62,393 bases of DNA, taken from positions 1 to 62,393 of the forward strand of contig JBHHYR010000002.1 in assembly GCA_046757585.1 (NCBI GenBank). The letters are read 5' to 3'. Numbering within the stretch: the stretch's first letter is position 1; every line of letters begins with the position of its first letter. The DNA is from Candidatus Binatia bacterium. Lineage in GTDB: Bacteria; Desulfobacterota; Binatia; HRBIN30. Shown in pieces: positions 5,237-41,731 of this stretch. The translations under genes and the position numbers were made by a program. The notes under the pieces are model-generated. The model saw only the letters and a list, made by a program, of their open reading frames with translations, searched no databases and was not told where the DNA came from.

Positions 5237-5250
5237 CGGCTGCCCTCCCC

Positions 5251-6284: not shown

Positions 6285-6375
6285 TTAGCCACGGCTTTCC
6301 TTGCAATGCAAGCATGTCGTTTTTACGGTCGTTGAACGGTGAGCCGGTGTGAAAACTGTGTTATCGTAACCGGCG

Positions 6376-7515: not shown

Positions 7516-7517
7516 GG

Positions 7518-8009: not shown

Positions 8010-8020
8010 GGCCGGGCGTG

Positions 8021-13579: not shown

Positions 13580-13611
13580 GAAAATGCCTCCTCGGATTGC
13601 GCTGCCCGTCT

Positions 13612-14268: not shown

Positions 14269-14297
14269 GAAACCCTCCTCTTTCGGACGACGATCAC

Positions 14298-19251: not shown

Positions 19252-19881
19252 TCATGCACTGCCGCGGCCCGGCGCACCAGGGTCCTGGGCCGGCTGTTGC
19301 TTGTCCCCACCTCTGCCGAGGTAGTCGAGGGTGGCCTTGATAATGAACTTCTTGAACAGTGGTCCGGGCCCGCTGCGCAGCCTGCCGCGGCCCGGCTTGC
19401 TCTGGGACGTCTCGACGAGGTCCACAGCGTAGAAGTACTTGGAATTCTGCAGATGCCGCATGAAGGCTGCAATGGTCTGATTGTCCAGGGCCATACCAGT
19501 GATCGTGGCGGCTCCGCCCACCTCGCTGAAGTCGACCAGCCAGAGTTTATCCGGCGTAGCGGTGCTGAGATCCTCGAGGGTTCGCACCGGCCCCACGCGC
19601 TTCTGTTTCAAAACGTCAATGACCTTCAGCTTGGCTTTCAGCGCGGCGCGTTTCTCGTTGAGGTCACGCACCTCGTGCGCCTGCTGGTCGAGCTGTGCGA
19701 TCTCCTCGCTGAGCTCATTGATCTCCCGGTCCAAACGAGCCAACTTCCGCCCTTGGAGCACGTAGGGCACTACCATGACGAGCGCGGCGACAGTGAAGCC
19801 GAGAACGGCGACTGACAGCTGCTGGCGCCGGCCTAACGCGCGTTGGGCTTCGCGAATTGGCAGCAGATTGATACGGATCAT
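19252..19881 (-). CDS. pilN: type IV pilus assembly protein PilN
   Basis: Canonical PilN N-terminus MIRINLLPIRE followed by a TM helix and a coiled coil. Confidence 0.85.
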   Translation of the reverse strand: MIRINLLPIREAQRALGRRQQLSVAVLGFTVAALVMVVPYVLQGRKLARLDREINELSEEIAQLDQQAHEVRDLNEKRAALKAKLKVIDVLKQKRVGPVRTLEDLSTATPDKLWLVDFSEVGGAATITGMALDNQTIAAFMRHLQNSKYFYAVDLVETSQSKPGRGRLRSGPGPLFKKFIIKATLDYLGRGGDKQQPAQDPGAPGRGSA

Positions 19882-20996
19882 TTGTCGTCCGGGCGCCGGA
19901 TCGCGAGGCCCATAGCGACCGCGAATTCCGGTCCTTGTGCGCGCAGCTGCGGACTGTCAACCGCCGGATCAAGGGTAATGTGGCCAAATGGGTTGGCAAC
20001 CTCCACCGGCGCCTGCACCCGTTCACTGAGTTGCTGCACCAATCCGGGCATGCGTGCGACGCCACCACTCAAATACACCACGTCGATCGTTTCGTCGGTG
20101 GCTGCAGTCCAAAAGAAACTGAGGGCGTGATGAATTTCCTCGATCAGGGCTGCTGCGGCCGAGTTGCTCACCGCCGCTGCCTGCTCTGCATCGGTGCCCG
20201 CCGGTGCCGTGCCCGCCTTGAATGCTTCGGCATCCGCCGGGCGCATGTCGAGCTCGCGTACCAGGGCTTCACTAATGTCACGACCGCCGACCGGTACGTC
20301 ACCCGTGAACGTCGATCGGCCATCTTTCAGGATATTGATCGATGAGTACCGCGCACCAATGTTGACCAGGGCGATCACCCGGTCGGCCGCGGGCTCATAA
20401 TTCGCCTCGAACATGTTCTCTAGCGCAAAATAGTCCACGTCGACCACGACGGGTGCCAGCCCGGCGGCCCGGACCGTCTCGGCGTAGCTGGCCACAATGT
20501 CCTTTTTCGCGGCTGCGAGCAGGACCTCCATCCGCTTGCCGTCATCCAAGTAGTCGGTGATCTGATAATCGAGGTTCACGTTTTCCAGATCTTCCGGGAT
20601 GAAATTGCCGGCTTCAAACAAGATGGTATTCTCCAGTTCCCGGGCGCTCTGAGCGGGCAATGTGACGCGCTTGATAATGACTGCCGGACCGGGGACCGCG
20701 GTAATCACTTTGCGGGCACGCATGCCACGGCCTGCGGTCAATGCCCGGGTCGCCTCGGCTACGGCCGAGGTCTCGTTCACCATGTTGTTCTGAATCGCGG
20801 AGGCCGGTGTTGGTGCGGTACCCGCGTTGGTGACGTGCAGTTGCCCGGTGCGCCCCCGAATTTCTAGAATCTTTATGGTACTGGATCCGATGTCGACGCT
20901 GAGATACGACTCCTCGCGTCGCATCGGGTTCAACTCTGACAGTGACGCGGTGAAAAAATGGCCTGCCCGACTGGCCCAGCTGCCCCCTATGGCCAT
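19878..20996 (-). CDS. pilM: type IV pilus assembly ATPase-fold protein PilM
   Basis: Actin-like fold motifs (LSVDIGSSTIKILE; VVDVDYFALENMF; VYLSGGVARMPGL). The stop overlaps the pilN start (ATGA). The start could instead be the ATG at 20924. Confidence 0.9.
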   Translation of the reverse strand: MAIGGSWASRAGHFFTASLSELNPMRREESYLSVDIGSSTIKILEIRGRTGQLHVTNAGTAPTPASAIQNNMVNETSAVAEATRALTAGRGMRARKVITAVPGPAVIIKRVTLPAQSARELENTILFEAGNFIPEDLENVNLDYQITDYLDDGKRMEVLLAAAKKDIVASYAETVRAAGLAPVVVDVDYFALENMFEANYEPAADRVIALVNIGARYSSINILKDGRSTFTGDVPVGGRDISEALVRELDMRPADAEAFKAGTAPAGTDAEQAAAVSNSAAAALIEEIHHALSFFWTAATDETIDVVYLSGGVARMPGLVQQLSERVQAPVEVANPFGHITLDPAVDSPQLRAQGPEFAVAMGLAIRRPDDK

Positions 20997-25311: not shown

Positions 25312-26787
25312 TCAGGCTCGCTCCGAGCAGCAGAGCTTGACCATTTCCCGCAGATTCGCCGAGCTTGCCTGTTCGAGGTGCAAGATCATGTCAATGGCCC
25401 GCTCCATCTTTTCCTTGCGAAGGGTATAACGGGTCTCGCGCCGAAACTTGTCTTCCACGCACTTGCGGCGCTCGTCAAAGGGACGCCCGGCTCCCCCCAG
25501 TGGGACCTCCTGTGCCGCCTCGAAGGCGCGTCCGTCTTCCATTTCAATGCGCACCTTGGCGCCGAACGACATCTTGAAGCCCGTCAGATCGAGGTTCGCC
25601 AGGTCGAGTTGGAAATGGTTGCCATTTTCATCTGAGCGGGGCTTGACCAGAGAGCGCTCGCGCATCCGCTGGGCCATTCCTTCGTCGAGCGTGAGGTGGA
25701 CGCGGCGCGCGAGCGCCCACGTCGCCTGGTCACGAATCCGCTCGCGGGTAAACCGACGTGCCGTCAGGTCCCGGTCGATCAGGGCGGTGGCAACGTTGTA
25801 GCCGACCGTGAAGTTGAGCGTCACCGGCAAGCTCTCAGGTCCCTTGAGGTGTGGAGTCGCCAGCGCTTCCATGCCGACGGTAAGTGGTCCGGCTGCGATG
25901 TGAACGGCCTTGACCTTCTTCGCATCGATCGAGTGCTGCCGGGCCATCGCAACAACGCAGTCGATTGACGTATCGATGTACGCGCATCCGGGATAGATCT
26001 TGTAGCAGAGTGTGTCCGTCAGCCAGACCTTGCCGAAACCGTCGTAGGCGCCCATGAGTGGCTGGCGCGCGAACACACTCGTGAATCCCTCTGGACCGTC
26101 CATGATGCTGGGCAAGCCGTGCAAGCCGTTGGCCGCAAGTTGCGCAGCCTGAACGCCGAGGGGTGCGGTCATGGATGCGAGCAGCGTCTTCGCCTCCGAG
26201 CCAAAGAACCCTGCCTGCACGGGGTACGTGGGTTGCAGCAGCGAGATGCCCAGCGCCGACTGGATCTGTTGCTGGTCCAGACCCAAGAGTTTGGCGGTGA
26301 TCACTGCACTCCCCACCGAATGGATGAAGCTCCACAATTGACCGTTGAGGGTACCCAGCAGCACGGAAGCGCCGGCGCGGCCTTCGATTTCGTTGGCCAG
26401 GATTTGTGCCAGTAGAAAGTCCCTGCCGTTGACGCCAATCTTCTCGGCCAGTGCCAAAGTCACCAAAACGGCCGAGTGACCCGTGTGGCCTGCGAACAGA
26501 TAATCATCATAGTCGAGAGCCATGCTCAGGGCGGTGTTGGCAAATATCGCGTTGTACAACGACGTCCGCTCCGCTGAGGGGATCATCGTGGCTTCTTTGG
26601 TTCCCCCCCATTCCTTCACCGTGCGGCTCACGGTCCGCCCCGCATCCGAGAAATGCCCCGCATGCACGGCGGCGATAACACTGAGGAATTGATTCTTCGC
26701 CTCCTCGATCACGCGGCGGGGCAAATCTTCGAAGCGAGCCAGCGCGACCCACTCAGCGATACGCCCCGTGGTAGAGTCGGTACTCAT
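25312..26787 (-). CDS. MmgE/PrpD-family protein (2-methylcitrate dehydratase-like)
   Basis: N-terminal IAEWVALARFEDLP and overall length fit the family. Start moved to ATG 26787, which overlaps the upstream stop (ATGA). Confidence 0.8.
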   Translation of the reverse strand: MSTDSTTGRIAEWVALARFEDLPRRVIEEAKNQFLSVIAAVHAGHFSDAGRTVSRTVKEWGGTKEATMIPSAERTSLYNAIFANTALSMALDYDDYLFAGHTGHSAVLVTLALAEKIGVNGRDFLLAQILANEIEGRAGASVLLGTLNGQLWSFIHSVGSAVITAKLLGLDQQQIQSALGISLLQPTYPVQAGFFGSEAKTLLASMTAPLGVQAAQLAANGLHGLPSIMDGPEGFTSVFARQPLMGAYDGFGKVWLTDTLCYKIYPGCAYIDTSIDCVVAMARQHSIDAKKVKAVHIAAGPLTVGMEALATPHLKGPESLPVTLNFTVGYNVATALIDRDLTARRFTRERIRDQATWALARRVHLTLDEGMAQRMRERSLVKPRSDENGNHFQLDLANLDLTGFKMSFGAKVRIEMEDGRAFEAAQEVPLGGAGRPFDERRKCVEDKFRRETRYTLRKEKMERAIDMILHLEQASSANLREMVKLCCSERA

Positions 26788-27332
26788 CCGCGTCCTCCTG
26801 TTCTGCCCGCCGCCAGGCGGGGCAGCACTCGCTCGAGGCATGCTTTGATTTCATCCCGGCAGGCCGCGTATACGTGCTCGTCCTGGCCGACCGGGTCTTC
26901 GATGTCTCCGGAGCCACCGGCGAACGCCTTGAGGGTGAACACGCCCTTGTTGGTCACTTCGGGAAAAGCGTCACGCAGCATCCGCACCTGCTCGTCGGTC
27001 ATAGCCAAGATCAGGTCGGCCTCCGCAAGCAGATGACGGTTGTGTTTCAGATCCGTGGACACGGCATCCGACGGGATGTCGATGCCCTCCTCGCGCAAGA
27101 CGAGGCGTGCGTCCATGGACACCAGGGCACCGTCACGCGCGTAGGGGGCGATCCCCCCCGACGCGACGGTGTGACGATCCTGCAGGCCGCGTTGCACCAG
27201 CATCTTGTTCAGCAGCGCCTCGGCAATCACGCTGCGGCTGGTATTGGCATGGCAGATGAACAGGATTTTCCGGTACGCGAGCAACGCATGACATCCGCTA
27301 CCCGTGGTCGGTTGCCGGACACAGGCCTCCAA
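26784..27332 (-). CDS. low-molecular-weight protein phosphatase (LMW-PTP/arsenate-reductase fold)
   Basis: P-loop CX5R(S/T) in ILFICHANTSRSVIAE and general-acid DP in GDIEDPVG. The start is uncertain: TTG at 27332 or a downstream TTG. Confidence 0.75.
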   Translation of the reverse strand: MEACVRQPTTGSGCHALLAYRKILFICHANTSRSVIAEALLNKMLVQRGLQDRHTVASGGIAPYARDGALVSMDARLVLREEGIDIPSDAVSTDLKHNRHLLAEADLILAMTDEQVRMLRDAFPEVTNKGVFTLKAFAGGSGDIEDPVGQDEHVYAACRDEIKACLERVLPRLAAGRTGGRG

Positions 27333-28591: not shown

Positions 28592-29977
28592 TTAGGCGGC
28601 GTCGTCTCTAGGTGCGATTCCGAGCTTATCCATCTTGTACTTGAGGATGCGACGGGTGGTGCCAAGTAGCTCCGCGGCACGGGTCTGGTTGTTTTGCGCT
28701 TGGCTCAAAGCGCTGCGGATGAGCTCCTGCTCGAACTGATCCACCGCTTCGCTGAGGCGTGTCTCGCCGCGGAGGACGCTCTGCTGAACGGGGTGCGCTC
28801 GGCCATTCGTGGCAAGGTAATGGGGTAAGTCGTCTACCTTCATGATCGCCGTCGAGGACAGGACCATGGTTCGCTCGACCACGTTTTCTAGCTCGCGCAC
28901 GTTACCCGGCCAGGCATACTGCATGAGCAGGTCAAGGGCGTCGTTGGTGAAGGACTTTTCGGGGATGCCGAGCTCGCGGGACTTCGCCTGCAGGAAGTGG
29001 CGAATGAGGAGTCCGATATCTTCTCGACGCTCACGCAAGGGTGGAAGGTGAACGGAGACCACGTTGAGCCGGTAGAACAGGTCCGGACGAAAGCTGCCGT
29101 CGCGCATGCCCTCGTGCAGGTCACGATTGGTCGCCGCGATCACCCGTACATCCACCTTGATCGGCTGCGCGCCACCAATGCGGGTGAACTCTGCTTGCTC
29201 CAGCACCCGCAAGATCTTGGCCTGCGTACTGGGGTTCATCTCGCCAATTTCGTCGAGAAACAACGTGCTCTGATCGGCAAGCTCGAACTGGCCCAGCTTC
29301 TTCGCGTACGCATCCGTAAAGGCGCCGCGCTCGTGACCGAACAATTCACTCTCGAGCAGGTTGTCCGGAATGGCCGCACAGTTGATGGTTATCATCGGCT
29401 TAGGAGCGCGCGGGCTGTGATAGTGCAGGGCCTTGGCGATCAGCTCCTTGCCCGTCCCGCTCTCGCCGGTGATGAGCACGGTGGTCTTCAAAGGTGCAAC
29501 CATGGACACGGTCTTGAGAACCGCCTGCATCTTTGCGGAACCGCCCACGATGTTTTCGAAGTTATACCGGCGTCCCACCTCTGATCGTAGCGCCTCGACT
29601 TCCCGTGCCAGCGCCGCGGACTGAACGGCACGCTCCACAATCAAGAGCAATTCGTCCACGTCGAACGGCTTGGTGACGTAGTCGCATGCGCCCAGCTTCA
29701 TCGCCGTCACCGCGGTCTTTACCGTCTTCGTGGCGGTGAGCATAACGACCGGCAGGGCCAAGGCGCGCTGCTTGATCTGCTCGAGCGCCTCCAGGCCATC
29801 GAGCCCGGGCATCAGAATGTCCAGGAGCACGACATCCAGCGGCTCGGCGTCAATGATCCGTAGGGCCTCATCGCCGGTGCCCGCGCATAGGACCTCGTAA
29901 CGATCCTTGAGCACCATCCGCAGGGACTGGCGAACCCCAGGCTCGTCATCAACAACTAAGACTCGTCGCTTTTCCAT
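28592..29977 (-). CDS. sigma-54-dependent response regulator (NtrC family: REC, AAA+, Fis-type HTH)
   Basis: REC domain (VLVVDDEPG...LLDILMPGLDG), Walker A GESGTGKE, Walker B TLFLDEIGE, HTH NQTRAAELLGTTRRILKYKM. The sigma-54 contact loop reads GAFTDA, not GAFTGA. Start chosen at ATG 29977. Confidence 0.9.
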   Translation of the reverse strand: MEKRRVLVVDDEPGVRQSLRMVLKDRYEVLCAGTGDEALRIIDAEPLDVVLLDILMPGLDGLEALEQIKQRALALPVVMLTATKTVKTAVTAMKLGACDYVTKPFDVDELLLIVERAVQSAALAREVEALRSEVGRRYNFENIVGGSAKMQAVLKTVSMVAPLKTTVLITGESGTGKELIAKALHYHSPRAPKPMITINCAAIPDNLLESELFGHERGAFTDAYAKKLGQFELADQSTLFLDEIGEMNPSTQAKILRVLEQAEFTRIGGAQPIKVDVRVIAATNRDLHEGMRDGSFRPDLFYRLNVVSVHLPPLRERREDIGLLIRHFLQAKSRELGIPEKSFTNDALDLLMQYAWPGNVRELENVVERTMVLSSTAIMKVDDLPHYLATNGRAHPVQQSVLRGETRLSEAVDQFEQELIRSALSQAQNNQTRAAELLGTTRRILKYKMDKLGIAPRDDAA

Positions 29978-31736
29978 TTCCAGTTTCAAGCTCTTCCCGA
30001 CTTGGCAACCAGACGGTGATGGATGCGGGTTCGGCGGCCGATTCAATTTCGATGCGCCCTCCGTTGCGTTCGATCAACGTCTTGGCGAACACCAGACCCA
30101 GCGGCAGAACCGCATCCTTACTGGCGTCCACCCCGTCAAGCAGATTCGCGAGCTTAGCGGTGACTGGATGCTGGCCGCCCGCATACTCGAAGGTGAGCGC
30201 CGTCCCGGTCTTCGCGGGATGGATGGCGAGGGTTTGTCCTTCCTGCAGATCTCGGCTGATGACACGCACCAGGTTTGCGAAGGCATAGACAATCTGGGCG
30301 GCGTCGACAAAGACTGGCAGCGGATCGGGCGGGCGATAATCAAGTGTTACACGCCGTCCGCTCAGCTCCGGAGCCAGATCACTCAGCGCGGGTGCCAGCA
30401 GAGCGTTGAAGGGGACATCGCGCAAGGCCGGGGTCCGAAAGCGGGTGAACTGCAACAGGTTTTCCAGCGCGCGATCCATGCGCTCCACCGCCTCGCCGGT
30501 CAGGCGCGCCACTGCCTCGCGACCCTCCCGGTCACCGAGCAGCCTTTCCAGGTGCTGGGTGACAGTCTTGATCGTGACCATGGGATTCTTGAACTCGTGG
30601 GCGAGCTCGTTGACGATCAAGTCGACCGTCCCGTCAGGCGCTCGTTCCCTCACTGGTGCTCGACTGGGATGGCGGGTGACTGTCTCTTCGGAGGGAACGA
30701 TCCGGCCGTAGCCGAAGAGAAGGTCATCAGCGTCGATGGTGCGGCTCTGCTTGAGCGCGATAGTGCGCGTGAGCACTGCCTCCAGCTCAGCCAGGTTGCC
30801 GAACCAGAGATAGTGGGTGAGTCGCTCGGTCGCACGTTCCGTGAACGTGACCGGATCCGCTGACAGGAGGCGCGTCAGATCGGCGGCGATCCGGTTCGCA
30901 ATCGCCGGGATGTCCTGCGGTCGCTCGCGCAACGGTGGCAGCGTGATGGGCAGGACGCCCAGCCGGTAGAAGAGATCCTTCGCGAGGCTTTGTGACCGGG
31001 CGAGATCCTGTAGGCTTTGCGAGGTACTGCACATCAAGCGGACCGCGTGCCACCCCTTATCGGAACCGAAACCCCCGCAGTCGAGTAGCTCCAGCAGCAG
31101 CAGCTGTCCCTCTGGATTCACGCGGCCGACATCTTGCACGAAGAGGGTCAGGTCCCCCGCGTCGAGCGCGCCCGCTTGCTGCAGCGCCGCACGAGTGCAG
31201 CTGGCGGGGGAGAGCGTGACAAAGCGGCCAGCCGAGCATGCCGTATGGATCGCTCGCGCCAGTCGTGCCTTGCCGGTTCCCGGCTCCCCGCAGATGAGAA
31301 CTGGCAGCGCCGTGCCGGTGGCCCGGCGCACCAGGGCCGCCGCTTCCCTCGGCAACACCGGCCCCTCCAGGATCGACCAGAAACCAAACGCCGGCTGCGC
31401 TTGCACACTGGCCAGCAGAGCCTGCACGCTCGACCGCAGTTTCTCGGGCTCGAACCAGCGCGGGAGAGTTGCGGAACGATTCGCTAGGCTGCGCTGCGGC
31501 CGACCTTCACTTTGCAGCCACAGGACCGGGCGCGCAGCTGGGAGCAACGCTGCCACCCCAGCGGGTAGAGCGTCATCCCCGACGATGAACAAATCCGCGT
31601 CGCTCAATTCAGGCGGCTGGCGCAGGCATTCCTGGGGAGTGAAGCCGTGTACCCGGTACTCGGAACCCAGAACGATCGCGATCGTCTCGCGAATAGCGGG
31701 GGAGCTATCGATGACGCATACGCGCACGCAATCCAC
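29949..31736 (-). CDS. hybrid signalling protein: receiver-like N-terminus, degenerate sigma-54-type AAA+ domain (no GAFTGA, no HTH), then HisKA and HATPase_c-like kinase core
   Basis: GTG start with AAGGAGG 8 nt upstream. Walker A GEPGTGKARLARAIH. The stretch DLFYRLGVLPITLPPLRERPQDIP is typical of enhancer-binding proteins. H-box ELAHEFKNPMVTIK. G2-like LGLVFAKTLIERNGGRIEIES. Confidence 0.8.
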   Translation of the reverse strand: MDCVRVCVIDSSPAIRETIAIVLGSEYRVHGFTPQECLRQPPELSDADLFIVGDDALPAGVAALLPAARPVLWLQSEGRPQRSLANRSATLPRWFEPEKLRSSVQALLASVQAQPAFGFWSILEGPVLPREAAALVRRATGTALPVLICGEPGTGKARLARAIHTACSAGRFVTLSPASCTRAALQQAGALDAGDLTLFVQDVGRVNPEGQLLLLELLDCGGFGSDKGWHAVRLMCSTSQSLQDLARSQSLAKDLFYRLGVLPITLPPLRERPQDIPAIANRIAADLTRLLSADPVTFTERATERLTHYLWFGNLAELEAVLTRTIALKQSRTIDADDLLFGYGRIVPSEETVTRHPSRAPVRERAPDGTVDLIVNELAHEFKNPMVTIKTVTQHLERLLGDREGREAVARLTGEAVERMDRALENLLQFTRFRTPALRDVPFNALLAPALSDLAPELSGRRVTLDYRPPDPLPVFVDAAQIVYAFANLVRVISRDLQEGQTLAIHPAKTGTALTFEYAGGQHPVTAKLANLLDGVDASKDAVLPLGLVFAKTLIERNGGRIEIESAAEPASITVWLPSREELETGNGKATSLSC

Positions 31737-32013
31737 TCAACGGCCTCCTTCCCCTCGCTTCGCGTCAAGCCCCAAAAGACACCCAACGCTACACGCTTTT
31801 TGCCCGGAAAGTCAATCCGGAGCCGGAACTGGTCCCAGCCGCAGAATTCTCTTGAAAAAGTTTAACCGGGCGTGGTAACGATCGATAAGGTTGGGTTGCA
31901 TTGTATTTGGGCGCTTTTACGGCGAGGCGGCCGGGGGCGCTCGTGCGAGTGAGGAAAACACGTTTGTGGTGATGCCGCTAGCGGTCGATACGTTGGCCCG
32001 GACGAGGTAGCCG

Positions 32014-32697
32014 GTGGAAAGTGCACGGCGGGGCGGTCCGCTACGCGCAGACCACGGCCCCTCGCAACGACCGGAAGCGTCGCCAGACGACGCGCAGATA
32101 GTGCTTGTCCGCCCTCAGGTGGTTGAGGACGTCGGCCACGTCTTGGGCAATTTATTCCAGAGAATCTATCATCTCATCGGTTTGACCAGTGCGACCGATG
32201 CTGCCGTTGCGGCGCAGCTCCAGTGTAGTACCCAACACCTCGAAGAATTCCTCCAGCTGGCTGTCGACTACTTCGCGCCACTGTCGCTGAAGTTGGAGTA
32301 TCTGTCGGGCATGGAGATTGCGCAGGGTCTCGCGCGGCAAATGAGCGATGCCCTCGGATCCTCGGTCATGATCGGCGCCAAGCTCCCGGACGGTGGACGA
32401 TTGCTTGTCGACCCCGGCCGGCTGGCGCACGCTTTCACGCTGTTGGCGTTGCAGCTACATGCAGACGACGGATGCAAGGGTGGCATCGAGGCGAAGGTGC
32501 TGCAGAAGCCGGCGGGCCGCTCCATGGTGCTGCGCGCGTCGATCCCATCGCGGTGTGTGTCGACGCCGTCGTCGGAAGCTGAGGTTCAATGGGCCGTGGC
32601 GGAAAAACTCCTAGAAATTCAGGGGGGTAGTCTGCAGCAGAAGACGGTATCGTCAGGAGAGGTCCTGTGGGAGATTCTGCTTCCCTTTCAGCCATGA
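32014..32697 (+). CDS. stand-alone cytoplasmic histidine-kinase-core-like protein with degenerate ATP-lid motifs
   Basis: H-box-like VVEDVGHVLGNLFQRIYHL. N-box position reads LAHAFTLLALQL, with no Asn. No DxGxG. C-terminal ...EKLLEIQGGSL.... The stop overlaps the next start (ATGA). The start codon is uncertain. Confidence 0.5.
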   Translation: MESARRGGPLRADHGPSQRPEASPDDAQIVLVRPQVVEDVGHVLGNLFQRIYHLIGLTSATDAAVAAQLQCSTQHLEEFLQLAVDYFAPLSLKLEYLSGMEIAQGLARQMSDALGSSVMIGAKLPDGGRLLVDPGRLAHAFTLLALQLHADDGCKGGIEAKVLQKPAGRSMVLRASIPSRCVSTPSSEAEVQWAVAEKLLEIQGGSLQQKTVSSGEVLWEILLPFQP

Positions 32698-34121
32698 CGC
32701 CGCCATTGCTGGCGATGGTGACCCGTATCTTGATCGTCGATGACGATCCGTTGATCCGGCGGCAACTTGAGGGCCTGTACAGCAGCCAGGCGTACGTGGT
32801 GGACTGCGCTGCCGACGTGCAGGAGGCGATCGAAAAGTTGGATACGGCGGACTTTTCGCTCGCAGTGGTTGATCTCAAGATGCCCGGCAAGGACGGCATC
32901 ACTTTGACGGGCGAAATCCGGCAGCGCTGGCCGACGGTGGACGTCATCATGATCACCGGCTACGGCAGCATTAAGGGGGCTGTCGAGGCGATGCGGCAGG
33001 GGGCGTGCGATTACATCACGAAGCCGTTTGAACCCGACGACATTCTGTTGGCGACCCAGAAGGTGCTCGAACGACGGCGTCTCCTCGATGAAATCGATTA
33101 CCTGCGCAAGCAGCTATCTGACCGGTACACCTTTGCCAAGATGGTCAGCCGGGATCCGGGAATGCTCGAGCTGTTTTCCACGATCGAGATGCTCGCGCAG
33201 AGTGACGTGACGGTGGTGATTAGCGGAGAGTCGGGGACAGGCAAGGAATTGGTGGCACGCGCCATTCATTTCCAAGGCAAACGTAAGGCCGGGCGCTTCG
33301 TGGCCATCAACTGCGCTGCGGTACCGGAAACGCTCCTGGAGAGCGAACTGTTCGGTTACGAGCGGGGTGCTTTCACGGGCGCGACGCAGGAGCGGGTCGG
33401 AAAGATCGAATCCGCGAATGGTGGCACTCTCTTCTTGGACGAGGTCGAAAGCATTCCGGTGGCGATGCAAGCGAAGCTACTGCGGGTGTTGGAGGAACGC
33501 GCCATCGAACGGCTCGGGAGCAATCGGCGCATCGGTGTGGATATGCGCGTGGTCGCGGCCACCAACCAGGATCTCGCCCAAGCCGTGTCGAACGGACGTA
33601 TGCGCGAAGATTTCTACTACCGGATCAACGTGGTGCCGGTCCAACTCCCCCCCTTGCGCGAGCGGATCACCGACGTACCGTTGCTGGTGGCCGATTTCTT
33701 GCGGAGTCATGAAATGGCACGTGAAAAGGGCATCAATCGCGTTTCGGAAGAAGCCTTGTCGCGGCTCATGGGATACAGCTGGCCCGGCAACATCCGCGAG
33801 TTGCTCAACGTCTTGGAACGGGCGGTCTTGCGAGCCAAGGGTGGTACCATTCGCGAGGTGGAGGTCCCAGGCGGACAGTCGCGCATTCCATCTGAACGAA
33901 CCGACCGCGATTTTCGTGTGTCGTTGCGGCAGTTCTTGAAGGCTGCGGAGCGGCAATATATTGCCCGCGTGCTGGAGCATTATCGGGGAAGCATCGCGCC
34001 GGCGGCTCGGCATGCTGTGATCGACCAAGCGACCCTGCACCGCAAGATCCGCTTGCACAGATTGCGTGCAAGTGAGTTCCGTCGGAACGGGCGGGGCGCC
34101 CGCAGCAAGGTGACGGAATGA
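32694..34121 (+). CDS. sigma-54-dependent response regulator (NtrC family) with canonical GAFTGA
   Basis: REC domain (ILIVDDDPL...VVDLKMPGKDG), GESGTGKE, ESELFGYERGAFTGA, TLFLDEVES, and a C-terminal HTH. Start at 32694 overlaps the upstream stop. Confidence 0.9.
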   Translation: MTPPLLAMVTRILIVDDDPLIRRQLEGLYSSQAYVVDCAADVQEAIEKLDTADFSLAVVDLKMPGKDGITLTGEIRQRWPTVDVIMITGYGSIKGAVEAMRQGACDYITKPFEPDDILLATQKVLERRRLLDEIDYLRKQLSDRYTFAKMVSRDPGMLELFSTIEMLAQSDVTVVISGESGTGKELVARAIHFQGKRKAGRFVAINCAAVPETLLESELFGYERGAFTGATQERVGKIESANGGTLFLDEVESIPVAMQAKLLRVLEERAIERLGSNRRIGVDMRVVAATNQDLAQAVSNGRMREDFYYRINVVPVQLPPLRERITDVPLLVADFLRSHEMAREKGINRVSEEALSRLMGYSWPGNIRELLNVLERAVLRAKGGTIREVEVPGGQSRIPSERTDRDFRVSLRQFLKAAERQYIARVLEHYRGSIAPAARHAVIDQATLHRKIRLHRLRASEFRRNGRGARSKVTE

Positions 34122-34238: not shown

Positions 34239-34254
34239 TGGCACGGCTGTTGCG
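34239..34254 (+). promoter_or_regulatory. sigma-54 (-24/-12) promoter, TGGCACGGCTGTTGCG
   Basis: Matches TGGCACG-N4-TTGC at every specified position with correct GG/GC spacing. It lies 117 nt downstream of the sigma-54 activator gene and 21 nt upstream of the first EPS-locus start codon (34275). Confidence 0.6.
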
Positions 34255-34274: not shown

Positions 34275-36383
34275 ATGTATTGTGAGTTCTACCAGCTGAC
34301 GGAACCGCCGTTCAATGTCACCCCGGACCCCAAGTTCCTTTACCTGAACGCTCGGTATCGGGAGGCGATCGCTTCGCTCAATTACGGGATCACGCAGCGC
34401 AAGGGTTTCATCACCCTGATTGGGGAAGCCGGAACCGGCAAGACGACTCTGCTGAACAAGTTGCTCGAGGAGCTGGATCCCAAGACCAAGTCGGTCTTCA
34501 TCTTCAACACGAACGTGAATTTCGAGGAAATCCTCGAGTACATGTTCGCGGAGTTCGCGCTGCCCATTCACAATGGCAAGAAGCTCTACATGCTGCAGCG
34601 GTTGAATAGTTTCTTACTGGAAGAGTTGCGCGGCGGTGGCAACGTCGCGCTGTTGATCGATGAGTCTCAAGATCTCGAGTTCTCAGTGCTCGAGGACCTG
34701 CGGTTGCTTTCCAACCTGGAAACCGCGAAGGAAAAAATCCTGCAGATCGTCTTGTCCGGGCAACCGGAGCTAGGGCAGAAGTTGAGCAACCCGATTCTGC
34801 GGCAGCTCCGGCAGCGGATCGGAATCAACTGTCGCCTGCTGCCGCTGTCACGTGATGAAATTTCAGAATACATTCAGTACCGGCTGCAAGCAGCTGGGTG
34901 TCCCGATCTCAAGCTCTTCTCGCGGGACGCGGAAGAGCAGATCTATCGCTTCTCGCGGGGTGTTCCTCGTCTGGTCAACGTGGTGTGTGACAACGCAATG
35001 GTGATCGGTTACGCACTCGGTAAGAAACGCATCGGTGGAGACGTGATTACCGAGGCGGCGGCCGATCTTTTGTCGGTGGAACCGCCACAGCAAGCGCCGG
35101 GCGAAGGTGCCGTCGAGGTGGCTGCGCTGCCGCCCCCGCTGGAGCCGAAGAGGCGCTGGCGGGCGCGTTTTGGCGTCGTGAGCCTCGTTGTAGCTGCCAC
35201 CCTGGTGGGGCTGCTGTCCGTTGGCAGAACGGTCTTGCACCGGCGGGGTGACAACGACAACAACGTCACGCCGACTTTGGAACGCCCGCATCTCGAGGTG
35301 ATCCGGCCGGGTGCGGAACCAGAGAGCGTGGGGGTGGAAGTCCCTCTGGCGCGCGAGCACAGAGCCGCAGCCGGTGCCGCTGCACCGGCCCGTCGACCGG
35401 TCACCAACCTCGCTGCGGCAGCCGGTGGAAAACGCGCAGCAGGCGAAGCGGTTGCCATGCGCCCGCTGACTGTTCCGGCGCAGGGAGCACTGGCGTCGAA
35501 ACCATCGGCTCATCAACAGGCGGCTGCGCCGCAGGCTCTACCAAATCCGCAGCTTGGGCGGCCTGCGAGGCGGGAAGCAGCGCCTCCACCCGTGCCTGCT
35601 CTGGCACCGCAGGTGCCCGCGTCGCACGAGGTGCGCCCACCCGGCGGTGGGGGGGCGCCCGTCGAGGGAAGCGTGCGGGTGGTGCGGGGTGCGGAGCGGC
35701 CGCCTGCGCCGCCTCCCGTGGCTCTGCCGAAGGTGTCCGAGGCCACGCAACCGATGCCGGGACTGGCTCCGCTGGCCAAGAAGGATGAAGAGGTGAACCC
35801 GCCGGTGGCTGAGCAGCCCGTGCCACAGCTCGCCCGGGCCGGCCAGCACACGACACACATCCCCCCCGCTCGCAAACCACCGCGGAAAGCGGAAACGACG
35901 CAGGCAACCGGCGGGGAGCGGCTGCCGCGCATCGACGGCGTGAAGTTTTCGCGGATCGTTGTGCAAAGCGGAGACTCGATGTCTGCAATCGCGTTCCGCA
36001 AGTACGGCCAGGCAAGCTACACAATCCTCGACCTTCTGAAGCTCGCCAATCCGGACCTGGAAGATATCGATCTGATTGCCGTGGGTCAGAGGATCCGTTT
36101 GCCGGAATTGGGCGACAGCTTTCCCATTCTCGATCACGGCTCTGGCCACTACGCGCTCCTGGTGTTTTCGACGCCGCTCAGGCGCCGTGCGGCGCGGCTC
36201 CAGCAGGCGCTGCAGAGCCGGGGGTTCGACGCGCATGTCTCCGCGGGCAGCGTGGGCAGCAACAAGCCTATGTTTCGGGTCGTGCTTTCCGGTTTCACCG
36301 ACCGGGGGGCTGTGGTGAAGGCCGGAAAGCGGCTGCAGAAGTTGTTCCGCCAGGAGACGCGATTCGCGCAGTTGGGCGGCTAG
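34275..36383 (+). CDS. ExeA-like AAA ATPase with TM helix, Pro/Ala-rich linker, LysM-like and SPOR-like peptidoglycan-binding domains
   Basis: N-terminus MYCEFYQLTEPPFNVTPDPKFLYLN and Walker A GEAGTGKTTLL are typical of ExeA/GspA-type ATPases. TM segment FGVVSLVVAATLVGLLSVG. C-terminal parts: VQSGDSMSAIAFRKYG...IAVGQRIRLP, then HYALLVFSTPLRRRAARLQQAL...FRVVLSGF. ORF track start 34149 was moved to ATG 34275. Confidence 0.8.
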   Translation: MYCEFYQLTEPPFNVTPDPKFLYLNARYREAIASLNYGITQRKGFITLIGEAGTGKTTLLNKLLEELDPKTKSVFIFNTNVNFEEILEYMFAEFALPIHNGKKLYMLQRLNSFLLEELRGGGNVALLIDESQDLEFSVLEDLRLLSNLETAKEKILQIVLSGQPELGQKLSNPILRQLRQRIGINCRLLPLSRDEISEYIQYRLQAAGCPDLKLFSRDAEEQIYRFSRGVPRLVNVVCDNAMVIGYALGKKRIGGDVITEAAADLLSVEPPQQAPGEGAVEVAALPPPLEPKRRWRARFGVVSLVVAATLVGLLSVGRTVLHRRGDNDNNVTPTLERPHLEVIRPGAEPESVGVEVPLAREHRAAAGAAAPARRPVTNLAAAAGGKRAAGEAVAMRPLTVPAQGALASKPSAHQQAAAPQALPNPQLGRPARREAAPPPVPALAPQVPASHEVRPPGGGGAPVEGSVRVVRGAERPPAPPPVALPKVSEATQPMPGLAPLAKKDEEVNPPVAEQPVPQLARAGQHTTHIPPARKPPRKAETTQATGGERLPRIDGVKFSRIVVQSGDSMSAIAFRKYGQASYTILDLLKLANPDLEDIDLIAVGQRIRLPELGDSFPILDHGSGHYALLVFSTPLRRRAARLQQALQSRGFDAHVSAGSVGSNKPMFRVVLSGFTDRGAVVKAGKRLQKLFRQETRFAQLGG

Positions 36384-37944: not shown

Positions 37945-39504
37945 ATGGCCAACGAACCTCCGCGTCATAATCGAACGAACGGTTTGCGCAATGGCCCTGG
38001 CAATACCAACGCCAACGTGCACGGGCCGTACGCCGGCTACCTTGGTGGTGGCCAGAATGCCAGCGAACAAGTGCGGGATATTCTTCACGTGCTGTTCAAA
38101 CGGAAGCGCTTCATCGCCGCAGTGTTCTTGGCGATTACCCTTCCCGGGTTGATCGCCACACTGGTTCGCAAGCCCCGTTACGTTGCCAGTGCGAAGGTGA
38201 TGATTTCTAAGGAACGGACTGACCCCACTGTGCAGCCGACCGAGCTGACCAGGCTGGAAACCATTCAACTCAACGAGTCTCTAGTCAATTCCGAGGTACA
38301 CGTCATCACTAGCCGTGATCTTTTGGAGCACGTCGTGCGGGCGCTGGCCCTTTCAGGCGACGGAGGTGGCCCGTCGCGTCTGCTCTCGCGCCGGAGGCCG
38401 TTCGGCAAACAGGTGCTCACGATGGCGCGCAGCCTGAGCGTCACGCCGATCAAAGCGTCGAACGTGATTCAAGTCTCCTACCGGGCTGCGGACCCGGCGC
38501 GCGCCGCGCGCATCGTCAATCGTGTGGTCGACGAGTATCTCGCCTACCATGCGACGGTCCATGGCACCAAAGGGCTGCCCCGCTTCTACGATGAGCAGCA
38601 ACGCATTCTCGGGCGGAAGCTGCGTCGCGCGGAAGACGCGCTGGCCGCCTTTGCAACCGAACACGGCATCGTTGCCCCACAGGACGAGATCGAGGCCACG
38701 CTGCACACCGTGAGCAAGGTGCAAGGCTCGTTGCGGGATGTGACGACCAGTATCGTCGGTGCCGAAGAGCGCATCCGCGCCATTCGTGACCAGATTGCAT
38801 CGCAGCCAGAGGTGGTCAAGCAATCCCAGTTCCTCGACGTGAACCCAGTCATCACGCAACTTGCGACGCAAATCGTGGACCGCCAAGTTGATCGGGTCGC
38901 GCTGCGGCGAAAGTATACCGATAAAGACCGTCACGTGCGTGATAACGAAGAAGAAATTGCCGCGCTGGAGCAGCAAATCAAGGATGAGAAGCGCGAGAAC
39001 CCAACAATTGTGACGCACCAGATTTTCCGCAGCAATCCATTGCGAGAGGATCGTTTGCGTACCTTGCTCGAGCTGGAAAGCTCCCTCAGAGAGCTGCGGG
39101 CGCGGCAGGCCACGCTGGAAGAGGAAGAAAGTCGGGCGAACCGACGCCTGGTCAGTCTGCAGCGGCAGCGTGTCGAGTACGACCGCTTGAACCAGCAAGT
39201 CAGAAACAACCGCGACACCTATGAGCTCTACATCAAACGAGCGCAGGAGGCGCGCATCAGCCAGGCGATGGATGAACAAAAGCTAGTCAATGTCGACGTC
39301 GTGGAACGGCCGGCCTTGCCTCTCCCGCGTGCCGATAGACGGCGGATCTCGGTGGTTGTGCTGATCATTGCGGGTTTGGTCGTTGGCATTGCGGGCGCGT
39401 TCGGTCGCGAATACATGAGCCGCTCTCTACGTTCGGAGTACGATGTCGGGCGGCATCTGGGCCTGCCGCTGCTTGCGAGCATCGGTGATGCTTCCAGAGC
39501 GTGA
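37945..39504 (+). CDS. polysaccharide chain-length determinant (Wzz/GumC-type PCP)
   Basis: N-terminal TM (FIAAVFLAITLPGLIATLV) followed by PRYVASAKVMI. Long coiled-coil periplasmic region. C-terminal TM (ISVVVLIIAGLVVGIAGAF). Confidence 0.8.
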   Translation: MANEPPRHNRTNGLRNGPGNTNANVHGPYAGYLGGGQNASEQVRDILHVLFKRKRFIAAVFLAITLPGLIATLVRKPRYVASAKVMISKERTDPTVQPTELTRLETIQLNESLVNSEVHVITSRDLLEHVVRALALSGDGGGPSRLLSRRRPFGKQVLTMARSLSVTPIKASNVIQVSYRAADPARAARIVNRVVDEYLAYHATVHGTKGLPRFYDEQQRILGRKLRRAEDALAAFATEHGIVAPQDEIEATLHTVSKVQGSLRDVTTSIVGAEERIRAIRDQIASQPEVVKQSQFLDVNPVITQLATQIVDRQVDRVALRRKYTDKDRHVRDNEEEIAALEQQIKDEKRENPTIVTHQIFRSNPLREDRLRTLLELESSLRELRARQATLEEEESRANRRLVSLQRQRVEYDRLNQQVRNNRDTYELYIKRAQEARISQAMDEQKLVNVDVVERPALPLPRADRRRISVVVLIIAGLVVGIAGAFGREYMSRSLRSEYDVGRHLGLPLLASIGDASRA

Positions 39505-40250
39505 TTGGGCGCGCAGAACCGACCTTGAGCAAAATATACGAAGCCCTCAAGAAGGCGGAGCAGGATCGGGAGCGCACGCGCCTGCGTACCTATGCGCGTC
39601 CGGCGGCGGGCTCGGGGAGACCGGTGCCGACGGATGGGACGGAGGAAGACTACCAGAAGCTGCGCGCCAGCCTGGTATCGATCGCCGTCCCCTCGGGGTT
39701 GCACACCATTCTGATCACGGCGCCGCGGCATGGCGAAGGGGTGACGACGGTGGCTATCGGGCTTGCGACGGCGCTTGCCCAGGAACGCGAGTCGCGGGTC
39801 GTGCTGGTGGAAGGGAATCTGCGGACGCCCTGTTTCAGTACGCTGCTGCCCTTGACCACCGAATCCGGCCTGGCAGACTTTGCCGCCGGACGCGTGGCGC
39901 CGGAAGTACTGGCGACGCGCGTTGATGCGCTCAATTTCTCCGTGATCTCCGCAGGAGCCGCTCCCAGCCTTCCCATCAATTTTGAAATGCTCGATGCGCT
40001 GCTCACGCGACTGCGATCGCAGTTCGACTTCATCGTCATCGACGGGCCGCCCGTGAACCAATACGCGGACGCCAGCGTCCTGGCAACGAAAGTTGACGGC
40101 GTGATTCTCGTGGTTGAAGCGGACAGTACTCCTGTCGTGGACGCCGAGACGGCGAAGCGGCAGCTCGATAAAGTTGGGACGCGCATCCTGGGTGTCGTGC
40201 TGAACCGGCGGCGGTCCTACATTCCAGCGTTTCTCGAGAGCATTCTCTGA
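39501..40250 (+). CDS. BY-kinase/MinD-fold ATPase-like protein with degenerate Walker A and A' motifs
   Basis: GTG start overlaps the upstream stop (GTGA). Walker A position reads APRHGEGVTT, with Val where the Lys is expected. Walker A' reads LVEGNLRTP. Walker B FDFIVIDGPP is intact. No C-terminal Tyr cluster. Confidence 0.7.
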   Translation: MIGRAEPTLSKIYEALKKAEQDRERTRLRTYARPAAGSGRPVPTDGTEEDYQKLRASLVSIAVPSGLHTILITAPRHGEGVTTVAIGLATALAQERESRVVLVEGNLRTPCFSTLLPLTTESGLADFAAGRVAPEVLATRVDALNFSVISAGAAPSLPINFEMLDALLTRLRSQFDFIVIDGPPVNQYADASVLATKVDGVILVVEADSTPVVDAETAKRQLDKVGTRILGVVLNRRRSYIPAFLESIL

Positions 40251-40268
40251 GAGCAAGGCGACACGTGG

Positions 40269-41699
40269 GTGCAAGCGACTGGTACAAAGCAAACGTCGGG
40301 ATCGCGTGGACTCGGACCGACGCTGGCTCTGCTGCTTCTCGCTGCCTTGATTGGCATCGGCACCACCGTGGCCGGTGCTCTGGCGGTGCTGCCGGTATTC
40401 GGGCTGCTGTTGATTGTCTGGATCGTGGCGCGCCCCGAGTACGGTATCGCACTGTTCCTGTCGACGTTTCTCATGAACTACCCCAAGGCGTTGCAAGGAA
40501 CAGGATTCTTGACGATCAACAATGTCTTAGGAGGCATCTTCCTAGTCCTGCTCGCGTACGAGGTGTACCGCGAGGAAGACTGGTGGTTCCTGCGTGCCCC
40601 GGAAGTGCAGATCCTCGTGTTCATCGTCTTTGCCTTTTATCTTTCGGGGCGTTTTCATGCGCCGGACTCCGCCAAGCTGAGCCTGCTCGGCGTGCAGGTG
40701 ACCACTGCCGCGAATCTGCGAACCTTCATCAATCGGGTGGCCTTTGTCGTGTTCTTCATCAATTTCATCCGTGCGCCAGAACATATCCGCATGATCTATG
40801 TGCTGGCCCTGGCATTCATGGTTGTTACCGCGCTGACCGGGATTCAAAGTGTGTTGCAGGGGGGTGGGCTTTACGGTCAGCGTGCTACCGCTCGTGTCAT
40901 CCTCGCGGCCGTCAACCCAAACCGGTTGGCCATGTTCGCCATCCTTGCCATTGCGGGGCTGTGGTATCTGGCGCAGTCGTTGCAGCCGGTGGCGCTGCGC
41001 TTCGTCATTATCCCGACTATTGTTGTTCTCGCGTTGGCGGTGTTCATGACGGCATCACGCGGCGGTCTGCTTGGTCTGGGCGTGTGCGCTCTGGTCATTC
41101 TCATCGACCAACGTGCCTCCCTCACCATCATATTCAACCTGGCCCTGGCAGGGGTGCTCCTGATGATGTTGGTCCTCCGGTTTGTGCCGGCGAAGAGCCT
41201 CGAACGCATCACCAATTTGCCTGGGACGCAAGCCGGACGGACGGGAGAAGGAGCCGGGTCGTTGCAGCGGCGGCAATACGCCTGGCGGATTGCAATCGAC
41301 ATGGCTCGGGAAAGTCCGTTTCTCGGTGTGGGCATGGGCAATTGGGAGGTGGCGCGCTTTCTAAGGGATCCCACGCGTTCCACCGGCGCGCCGCACAGTT
41401 CCTACTTGCTGGCACTGGTGGAGGGTGGCGCCTTTTGCCTGACCGGTTTCCTCGTCTTGCTCTGGCGCACATGGCGCAACCTGCGCATTTCCGAGGATTA
41501 CCTCAGCGATCCGGCCTTCCCGCTCGCGGACCTACTCTGGATTGTGAAGAGTGCCAAGGTCAGCCTTGTGGTCTTGGTCTTCTTCTCGATTTTCGCGGAT
41601 CTCTGGCAATTGGTCATTCTGTTCTGGCTGGTGGGTCTGGGCATTGTGATTCGCCGGATGGTCGAGCGCACGGCCCTCGAAGAGATTGTCGCTTACTGA
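40269..41699 (+). CDS. O-antigen ligase/polymerase-like (Wzy_C) integral membrane protein
   Basis: About 10-12 hydrophobic helices and a large loop with MTASRGGLLGLGV...GAPHSSYLLALVEGG, typical of the Wzy_C/O-antigen-ligase family. GTG start. Confidence 0.75.
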   Translation: MQATGTKQTSGSRGLGPTLALLLLAALIGIGTTVAGALAVLPVFGLLLIVWIVARPEYGIALFLSTFLMNYPKALQGTGFLTINNVLGGIFLVLLAYEVYREEDWWFLRAPEVQILVFIVFAFYLSGRFHAPDSAKLSLLGVQVTTAANLRTFINRVAFVVFFINFIRAPEHIRMIYVLALAFMVVTALTGIQSVLQGGGLYGQRATARVILAAVNPNRLAMFAILAIAGLWYLAQSLQPVALRFVIIPTIVVLALAVFMTASRGGLLGLGVCALVILIDQRASLTIIFNLALAGVLLMMLVLRFVPAKSLERITNLPGTQAGRTGEGAGSLQRRQYAWRIAIDMARESPFLGVGMGNWEVARFLRDPTRSTGAPHSSYLLALVEGGAFCLTGFLVLLWRTWRNLRISEDYLSDPAFPLADLLWIVKSAKVSLVVLVFFSIFADLWQLVILFWLVGLGIVIRRMVERTALEEIVAY

Positions 41700-41731
41700 G
41701 TGCGACGGCGGAGCGACGAGTGGACGCAGCG

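Follow-up and report, generated by a model that had tools for sequence, protein, structure and literature searches.

The gene at positions 29949..31736 on the minus strand of a 62,393-nucleotide stretch of DNA from Candidatus Binatia bacterium (GenBank assembly GCA_046757585.1, contig JBHHYR010000002.1; the whole stretch is called the window below) encodes a 595-amino-acid protein in one uninterrupted frame. We refer to this protein as HYB, and to the product of a divergent gene at 32014..32697 (plus strand) as ORPH (Table 1). An earlier note on this DNA, made from the sequence alone, had described the 29949..31736 frame as a single hybrid gene in which a receiver-like segment with an altered acidic pocket is followed by a degenerate sigma-54-activator-type AAA+ domain and a histidine kinase core with an H-box, and in which a DNA-binding helix-turn-helix (HTH) is missing. 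Both the reading frame and the domain profiles agree with that description, and all the motifs quoted in the note (VIDSSP, FIVGDD, GEPGTGKA, TLFVQDV, ELAHEFKNP and DLFYRLGVLPITLPPLRERPQDIP) are present in the HYB translation where expected.

Specifically, HYB carries a pseudo-receiver, a sigma-54-activator-type AAA+ domain with its lid, a HisKA helix pair of the dimerization and histidine phosphotransfer (DHp) type and a domain resembling the catalytic and ATP-binding (CA) domain of kinases, in that order. Pfam detects Sigma54_activat (E value of 2.3e-15), Sigma54_activ_2 (8.4e-13), AAA_lid_14 (6.3e-13) and, barely above its cutoff, HisKA (E 2.2e-6; 28.1 bits against 26.9), and finds neither HTH_8 nor HATPase_c. 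Among NCBIfam models, residues 133–354 align to NifA-, NtrC- and NorR-type activators (best NifA, E 4.6e-30) and residues 375–582 to the AtoS kinase core (E 1.8e-12), although no model reaches its cutoff on HYB and all score far under equivalog cutoffs. The C-terminal kinase core occupies the place of the Fis-type HTH, and the protein has no sensor or transmembrane region, unlike ZraS-, AtoS-, NtrB- and PrsK-type kinases.

An AlphaFold2 model of HYB built with 27 homologues as input (mean predicted local distance difference test score, pLDDT, of 75.7) has confident domains whose packing against each other is unreliable (predicted template modelling score, pTM, of 0.43). Foldseek matches the N-terminal two thirds of this model to the receiver and AAA+ domains of NtrC1, NtrC4, NtrX, VpsR, FleQ and LuxO (best 1ny5, NtrC1, E 1e-19) and the C-terminal third to the HK853 core (6rh0, E 4e-13). 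By sequence, the best solved relative of the kinase part is ZraS (9jfj, E 1.3e-11 with HMMER).

HYB belongs to a sizeable protein family. A search of 5.8 billion proteins yields 587 matches, more than 100 of which are full-length (roughly 590–610 amino acids, 40–65% identity) with the same Pfam pattern, and a HMMER scan of 1.84 billion cluster representatives yields 130 clusters (defined at 50% identity) at E ≤ 1e-30 to HYB. The earlier note had named a frameshift or assembly join as the outcome that would undo its proposal, and the recurrence of the same architecture in these homologues excludes both. Distant members retain the architecture unchanged at roughly 30% identity and 600–660 amino acids, and some shorter distant relatives lack the pseudo-receiver. 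Relatives are encoded in 199 stretches of GTDB species-representative genomes; the best 80 of these come almost entirely from metagenome-assembled genomes and are labelled Candidatus Binatia, ‘Deltaproteobacteria’, Thermodesulfobacteriota, Syntrophobacteraceae or Polyangiaceae. Among the sources examined, every one with a name is a metagenome or a metagenome-assembled genome, most often of Candidatus Binatia or ‘Deltaproteobacteria’ type. Two proteins of roughly 1,040 amino acids (P0214 and P0378) have HYB joined to a C-terminal Glyco_transf_9 (heptosyltransferase) domain, and these could be real fusions or the result of gene-calling read-through.

The names that HYB relatives bear in their sources are unspecific and contradict one another (‘sigma 54-interacting transcriptional regulator’, ‘DNA-binding NtrC family response regulator’ and ‘signal transduction histidine kinase’). 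The architecture appears to be undescribed, as the note had supposed: no description was found in NCBIfam, in the source annotations or in the literature searched, which did not cover most subscription journals.

Which features the family has lost and which it has kept can be read from an alignment of 188 members of 540–690 amino acids, to which the residue counts below refer unless another sample is named. The N-, G1- and G2-box columns were located by HMMER alignment to the solved ZraS (9jfj) and HK853 cores, and the receiver columns by aligning HYB sequences with 14 true receivers. In the AAA+ domain, conservation of the three Walker A glycines is about 98%, and the Walker A lysine is K in 139 members (74%), R in 20, Q in 13 and A in 6, with a variable residue following it. 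The altered Walker B sequence remarked on in the earlier note proves to be a family trait in that the acidic pair is not conserved (D in 41 members, E in 26, H in 25, S in 21, and others). The sensor-II Arg position holds Ala in 136 members, the putative R-finger R258 is retained in 139, and conservation is good around both LPPLRER and the R-finger.

The GAFTGA (L1) loop of sigma-54 activators contacts sigma-54. This loop is deleted in HYB, as the note had also claimed, from a domain that Pfam, NCBIfam and Foldseek all assign to the sigma-54-activator type. No GAFTGA-like motif occurs in any of the 84 non-redundant members taken from fetched loci, and the stretch from Walker A to Walker B is roughly 20 residues shorter than the loop-carrying stretch of the partner activator introduced below. 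Because it lacks GAFTGA, the Walker B pair and the sensor-II Arg, the AAA+ domain should not remodel sigma-54 and is probably not an ATPase. We also considered a cyclic di-GMP input such as that of FleQ and VpsR, which are among the fold matches, and inspection of the alignment gave no support for it: by this inspection alone, no conserved Arg was seen where the AAA+ domain begins, and the ‘ARAIH’ sequence after Walker A is generic to sigma-54 activators of this type.

The receiver is similarly degenerate, with a phospho-Asp column that is mostly Gly or otherwise non-acidic. Gly is found in all 31 members examined from clade B, the distant branch at roughly 30% identity, and in 21 of 47 from clade A, which includes the window and in which only 4 of 47 have Asp. 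The Thr column is not conserved across the family and the Lys is retained only in clade B; the full set of residues characteristic of a receiver (phospho-Asp, acidic pocket, Thr/Ser and Lys) is not present. A Gly at the phospho-Asp position implies that this domain is not a relay station. For the same reason we rejected a His-Asp-His relay running through HYB’s own receiver: clade B, despite a weak Pfam match to Response_reg, has Gly in this column too.

In the kinase core, the H-box of a HisKA autokinase (H-E/D-x-x-N/T) is present and is nearly invariant: His380, Asn384 and Pro385 are each found in 184 members and Glu381 in 174 (with Asp in 9 others), and ELAHEFKNP as a whole is about 98% conserved. 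In contrast, the boxes needed for ATP binding are gone. Position 492, which corresponds to the N-box Asn, is V in 71 members, A in 68, S in 14, T in 14 and G in 6, with Asn not among the six commonest residues. No G1 (DxGxG) box exists in the aligned members, whose corresponding region lacks any conserved Asp or Gly, and the G2 position reads LPLG across the family. Pfam HATPase_c is detected in only 2 of 120 listed homologues. The ‘partly degenerate ATP lid’ of the earlier note is indeed degenerate, yet ‘partly’ understates its condition, as the N-box Asn, G1 and G2 are all missing. A CA-like domain without these boxes should not bind ATP, and HYB should therefore not autophosphorylate, even though the fold is retained and is moderately conserved at D478, N488, G547, R557, N558 and a GG pair.

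Conservation is distributed unevenly along the protein. The mean frequency of the commonest residue is 0.70 in the DHp domain, 0.61 in the lid, 0.50 in the AAA+ alpha/beta subdomain, 0.47 in the pseudo-CA domain and 0.43 in the pseudo-receiver, and 30 positions are conserved at 93% or more. Because the DHp domain and lid rank highest, selection must bear chiefly on the lid and on the helix with the phosphorylatable His, and not on any nucleotide site.

HYB has a constant neighbour. Typing the open reading frames of 87 related loci against reference proteins revealed an NtrC-type activator directly 3′ of HYB on the same strand in all 81 loci that extend far enough. The two genes overlap by 29 nucleotides in 25 loci and by 4 nucleotides in 8, and are separated in the others by a gap of at most 62 nucleotides. 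The adjacent canonical NtrC-type regulator and the 29-nucleotide overlap described in the note are thus both real, the ATG at 29977 having been verified. The receiver, AAA+ domain and HTH of this partner are intact (Sigma54_activat, 232 bits). Its sigma-54 loop is GAFTNA in 34 of the 81 orthologues, GAFTDA in 33, GSFTDA in 12 and GAFTHA in 2, with GAFTGA in none, unlike the second activator at the locus, which has GAFTGA in 28 of 28 cases. Such loop variants are also reported from Desulfovibrio vulgaris activators, in a study that judged them compatible with the activation of sigma-54 (PMC4641369). Over 409 residues, the N-terminal part of HYB is 29% identical to the partner (E of roughly 3e-33 to 4e-33), and its match to the second activator is weaker (E 2e-22).

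Table 1 Features of the HYB locus and their positions in the window
Feature	Position	Strand	Basis or remark
HYB, 595-amino-acid hybrid: pseudo-receiver, pseudo-AAA+ with lid, DHp, pseudo-CA	29949..31736	-	GTG start at 31736; TGA stop at 29949..29951
Shine-Dalgarno sequence AGGAGG	31744..31749	-	7 nucleotides 5′ of the HYB GTG start; read from the sequence
Pseudo-receiver of HYB, residues 1–112	31401..31736	-	Model, structure matches, receiver alignment
FIVGDD in the pseudo-receiver, Gly at the canonical phospho-Asp position	31572..31589	-	Coordinates translated
Degenerate sigma-54-activator-type AAA+ alpha/beta subdomain of HYB, residues 129–265	30942..31352	-	Profiles, structure matches, alignment
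HYB Walker A, GEPGTGKA	31266..31289	-	Coordinates translated
HYB degenerate Walker B, TLFVQDV (canonical hhhhDE)	31128..31148	-	Coordinates translated
HYB AAA+ lid, residues 266–340, including LPPLRER	30717..30941	-	Pfam, family alignment
HYB sensor-II helix YLWFGNLAELEA, sensor-II Arg replaced by Ala	30777..30812	-	Family alignment
HYB DHp/HisKA helical hairpin, residues 369–432	30441..30632	-	Pfam, family alignment
HYB H-box, ELAHEFKNP; His380 at 30597..30599	30582..30608	-	Coordinates translated
HYB CA-like (HATPase_c-like) domain without ATP-binding boxes	29997..30431	-	NCBIfam, structure matches, alignment
HYB N-box region YAFANLVRVISR, Mg-Asn position is Val492	30252..30287	-	Alignment to solved cores
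HYB G2 equivalent, VLPLGL	30093..30110	-	Alignment to solved cores
Partner NtrC-type activator (receiver, sigma-54 AAA+, HTH_8)	28592..29977	-	ATG at 29977; overlaps the HYB 3′ end by 29 nucleotides
GAFTDA sigma-54 loop of the partner activator	29309..29326	-	Translation
ORPH, stand-alone DHp and pseudo-CA	32014..32697	+	Overlaps the start of the second activator; divergent from HYB
Second NtrC-type activator, canonical GAFTGA, PrsR-like below model cutoff	32667..34121	+	Pfam, NCBIfam
XrtA/PEP-CTERM-system-like ATPase (AAA_22, LysM and SPOR), first gene of the polysaccharide operon	34275..36383	+	Pfam, NCBIfam
Predicted sigma-54-type promoter TGGCACGGCTGTTGCG	34239..34254	+	20 nucleotides 5′ of the XrtA-type ATPase ATG (34275)

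Kinases with intact ATP-binding boxes are found beside HYB in related loci. In most of these loci, the gene after the partner activator encodes a true kinase with receiver (REC), HisKA and HATPase_c domains, and the next one a 227-amino-acid protein (for example, at 13369..14469 and 14469..15152 of locus L001). The latter protein has no Pfam match, and hhalign gives a probability of just 0.2% for a relation to kinase cores. Both genes are absent from the window, which has a short-chain dehydrogenase and a low-molecular-weight tyrosine phosphatase instead. In clade B, the gene directly 5′ of HYB additionally encodes a membrane kinase whose N, G1 and G2 boxes are intact, so that the operon runs from a kinase with either a PrsK-like seven-transmembrane (7TM)-GAF-HisKA-HATPase_c or a Cache-HAMP-HisKA-HATPase_c layout through HYB and the NtrC-type activator to the REC-HisKA-HATPase_c kinase (loci L042–L087; for example, 4501..6729, 6707..8590, 8559..10007 and 10043..11248 of L067). 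The PrsK-like kinase scores 140 bits against a TIGR02916 cutoff of 300.

The C-terminal core of HYB matches this upstream kinase with E values of 1e-14 to 1e-18, whereas its matches to the downstream REC-kinase have E values of at least 5e-4. Since its N-terminal part is closest to the activator and its C-terminal core to the upstream kinase, HYB has the appearance of a fusion between paralogues of its flanking regulator and kinase. Furthermore, helix 1 of the DHp domain is very similar in the clade B upstream kinase (GLAHEIRNPLVAIRTFTQLL; GLAHEIRNPLVAIRTFTQLLPERY) and the adjacent HYB (ELAHELKNPMVTIKTFAQLL; ELAHELKNPMVTIKTFAQLLGDRF). This near-identity suggests that both address the same receiver or that their DHp domains heterodimerize. 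Judged from sequence, HYB is best explained as a signalling pseudo-enzyme assembled from two paralogous pieces, wherein the N-terminal two thirds would be a copy of an NtrC-type activator and the C-terminal third a copy of an NtrB/ZraS/PrsK-type kinase core.

HYB is homologous both to enhancer-binding proteins and to HisKA kinases, yet it lacks defining functional features of each. It shares with NtrC/NtrC1/AtoC-type enhancer-binding proteins the receiver, AAA+ and lid folds, their order and the LPPLRER and WxGNxxELE blocks, but lacks their phospho-Asp, GAFTGA/L1 loop, Walker B DE pair, sensor-II Arg and HTH. What it retains of a functional sigma-54 activator is thus the Sigma54_activat and lid homology, and not the loop, the catalytic AAA+ set or the DNA-binding domain. 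With ZraS, AtoS, NtrB and PrsK it has in common a DHp hairpin bearing H-E-x-x-N-P and a CA-type alpha/beta domain, and it differs from them in missing the N-box Asn, G1 and G2 and in having an activator-derived N terminus. A DHp domain with a conserved, phosphorylatable His joined to a CA-like domain that has no ATP motifs and does not use ATP, as predicted for HYB, is the class feature of RedE (M. xanthus), ChpT (Caulobacter) and Spo0B, and likewise describes PhyT, DivL and RetS. This resemblance is a functional analogy only, as none of these proteins carries an enhancer-binding-protein AAA+ module and no specific sequence relation of HYB to any of the six was found. The best matches in sequence and fold are ordinary kinase cores, namely ZraS, HK853 and CpxA; DivL is weak (E 0.006), and ChpT and Spo0B are not among the matches listed.

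On the other side of HYB, the ORPH gene overlaps the start of the second NtrC-type activator, to which it is translationally coupled. ORPH (roughly 225 amino acids) has no Pfam or NCBIfam match. A shorter, 198-amino-acid version from the same contig is present in the collection (99% identity, 87% query coverage), and the true start may lie downstream of 32014. Profile–profile comparison relates ORPH to the C-terminal profile of HYB with 97% probability over 190 columns, although the similarity is insignificant in a direct BLAST comparison. His42 and Asn46 (H+4) are invariant, and the H+1 acidic residue and the ATP boxes are missing. A model of ORPH (pLDDT 79.5) matches the cores of HK853, ZraS, RetS and DivL, the last two being members of the non-autophosphorylating group described above. 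About 100 homologues of ORPH were noted, all called ‘hypothetical’ except for one mislabelled as an F420 ligase. Because ORPH consists of a DHp and a pseudo-CA domain and is followed by an activator, the locus has two pairs in which a pseudo-kinase with a conserved His accompanies an activator.

In the window’s clade, the second activator is followed by genes for an XrtA-type ATPase, an RfaH-like antiterminator, polysaccharide export, chain-length and tyrosine-kinase proteins, and glycosyltransferases. Of 24 distinct loci, 9 (the window and 8 others) have a sigma-54 promoter of the form TGGCAC-N5-TTGC(G) at 19–23 nucleotides 5′ of the start codon of the ATPase gene. In L001 it is at 7436..7450 (minus strand), and its position would leave a very short leader before the start codon. 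Loose matches to sigma-54 promoters are not above chance in the window as a whole (42 observed versus 33.6 ± 6 expected), and of the predicted sites only that at 34239 is positionally conserved. The intergenic region between the divergent HYB and ORPH genes (31737..32013) has no conserved -24/-12 site among 32 loci. The likely output of the system is sigma-54-dependent control of envelope or exopolysaccharide genes.

This arrangement resembles the PrsK/PrsR systems of PEP-CTERM/exosortase loci, in which XrtA-like ATPase, export, chain-length, tyrosine-kinase and glycosyltransferase genes are likewise found. Both local activators match the PrsR model (416 and 403 bits against a TIGR02915 cutoff of 502.6) and the clade B upstream kinase shares the 7TM-GAF-kinase layout of PrsK. 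However, regulators and kinase all score below their cutoffs, XrtA-system models match only below cutoffs, and no exosortase was recognized among the window open reading frames scanned, so we do not assign the locus to the PrsK/PrsR group. Classical PrsK/PrsR has two components, neither of which is equivalent to HYB (PMC1569441).

Several large open reading frames without Pfam or NCBIfam match are present in the polysaccharide locus at 40265..42601, 52966..54531, 55991..56743 and 56571..57869 (plus strand), one of them encoding 778 amino acids. A BY-type tyrosine autokinase gene is part of the polysaccharide operon (39501..40250, plus strand), and an LMWPc phosphotyrosine phosphatase gene is located two genes 3′ of the HYB–activator operon (26784..27332, minus strand); the two products may form a Wzb/Wzc-like pair. 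A 1,864-amino-acid protein with repeated Big_1 and Invasin_D3 domains (8021..13615, minus strand) looks like a large adhesin, and its gene adjoins aroB and a type IV pilus cluster (pilM at 19878..20996 and pilQ at 15987..18380).

The best reading of these observations is that HYB is an accessory component that does not autophosphorylate and serves the activator beside it as a phosphatase, phosphate sink or phosphotransferase. That HYB is not an autokinase and acts on its neighbour through the DHp domain we hold to be somewhat more probable than its negation, and we are far less confident in any single sub-mechanism. In HisKA domains, the acidic residue at H+1 serves kinase activity and the Asn or Thr at H+4 phosphatase activity (PMC3510030), and kinase-like proteins that do not autophosphorylate act as phosphatases, phosphotransferases or partner-binding regulators beside a true kinase (PMC2755868, PMC3433190, PMC5898713). 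If this model is correct, the HYB DHp domain would dock on the receiver of the co-translated activator, and phosphate would originate from separate ATP-driven kinases, which in related loci may be the PrsK-like enzyme upstream, the REC-HisKA-HATPase_c enzyme downstream, or both. HYB could then drain phosphate from the activator receiver, either as a phosphatase or as a His sink working by reverse transfer, in the manner of RedE, a kinase-like protein that does not autophosphorylate, takes phosphate from a receiver and dephosphorylates RedF (PMC2755868). Alternatively, it could pass on phosphate from another receiver-containing protein as Spo0B does, or as does ChpT, a histidine phosphotransferase resembling a histidine kinase (PMC3433190).

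The role of the activator-derived arm is the least certain step. The pseudo-receiver and AAA+ domain would form a look-alike of the activator that docks on, or co-assembles with, the REC-AAA+ portion of the partner, an option made attractive by the fact that the arm is its paralogue, and that would tie phosphate flow to the assembly state of the partner. Rings in which HrpR and HrpS mix provide a precedent (PMC3105312). The arm might instead use its retained P-loop to bind a nucleotide as an input. An oligomerization or sensing role for the AAA+ module, as the earlier note proposed, is possible.

Several observations weigh against this accessory role. The missing boxes predict, rather than prove, that HYB does not bind ATP. 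Moreover, the kinase-specific Glu at H+1 is retained, and a pure phosphatase would not need it. As judged from its residues, the pseudo-receiver cannot supply a relay Asp as phosphate donor to His380, and in the window no open reading frame matches the REC-kinase of related loci at E < 1e-6, nor was any HisKA/HATPase_c kinase found among the large open reading frames scanned in the 62 kb (PcrA, PilQ and an acyl-CoA dehydrogenase are among those present). The C-terminal core is matched best by ordinary kinases (ZraS and HK853), in structure as in sequence, and not by ChpT or Spo0B. Finally, the binding of HYB to the activator beside it is putative, and the way in which the model places its domains relative to each other is unreliable.

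Some of these points would be accommodated if HYB were a working autokinase, as the earlier note assumed when it called HYB the kinase controlling the adjacent activator. In such a scheme, a divergent CA domain would bind ATP in a non-canonical way and phosphorylate His380, with the AAA+ module serving as a sensor or oligomerization input and the adjacent activator as the cognate regulator. The invariant H-box with a Glu specifically needed for kinase activity (PMC3510030), the retained and moderately conserved CA fold, the lack of another kinase nearby in the window and the kinase-then-regulator order with overlapping genes typical of cognate pairs are all in keeping with it. However, V or A predominates at the Mg-binding Asn position across the 188 members, which also have no G1 box and LPLG in place of G2, HATPase_c escapes detection by Pfam in HYB and in all but two of the 120 homologues listed, and intact kinases adjoin HYB in most related loci. 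These features make autophosphorylation improbable, and the claim of the earlier note is not upheld. The opposite extreme, in which HYB carries out no phosphate chemistry and its REC-AAA+ arm joins the ring of the partner as a poison subunit or anti-activator that blocks or tunes sigma-54 activation, would relegate the kinase-like part to dimerization and receiver docking. The homology of its AAA+ domain and lid to those of the partner, the conservation of the lid, LPPLRER and R-finger regions in the face of lost catalytic residues, the deletion of GAFTGA in all members and the precedent of mixed rings of the paralogous activators HrpR and HrpS (PMC3105312) would all fit. Near-invariant His380, Glu381, Asn384 and Pro385 are nevertheless hard to explain in a merely structural dimerization helix, and the most conserved part of HYB is the DHp domain, not the AAA+ domain. 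We consider this version unlikely as a full account, although it can coexist with an accessory role in phosphate flow.

The degenerate look of every enzymatic motif could also suggest a decaying gene or an artefactual fusion, be it a pseudogene or an assembly or frameshift join. Yet a single open reading frame of roughly 595 codons recurs at 30–65% identity on over 100 independent contigs, which stem from many studies, with strongly conserved blocks, a good Shine-Dalgarno sequence and conserved synteny. We regard decay or artefact as next to impossible, this family conservation effectively ruling it out.

If the accessory role is taken further, HYB might exemplify a new form of control over a sigma-54 activator. 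In this more speculative scheme, a DHp domain tethered to an activator look-alike would enter a mixed dimer or ring with the REC-AAA+ portion of the partner, and the oligomeric state of the partner would gate phosphate removal or transfer at its receiver, or the reverse. HYB would then stand between a PrsK-type kinase and a PrsR-type activator as an obligatory third component, and the HYB and ORPH pairs would form a branched circuit for envelope polysaccharide. We offer this combination tentatively and think it unlikely.

A two-component pathway is normally taken to comprise one kinase and one regulator. HYB appears to be a conserved third protein made from dead copies of both, with strong constraint only on the His helix and the AAA+ lid, and annotation labels such as ‘sigma 54-interacting transcriptional regulator’ and ‘NtrC family response regulator’ are misleading for its family. 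If the proposed function is correct, HYB would be the first case in which a kinase-like protein has taken over the AAA+ module of an enhancer-binding protein for regulation or docking, and it would add a new class to the few known non-autophosphorylating kinase-like regulators (RedE, ChpT, DivL and RetS). To our knowledge, the envelope and biofilm biology of Candidatus Binatia and related lineages is almost unknown, and in these uncultured soil and sediment bacteria the HYB family is a marker for the regulatory part of exopolysaccharide loci.

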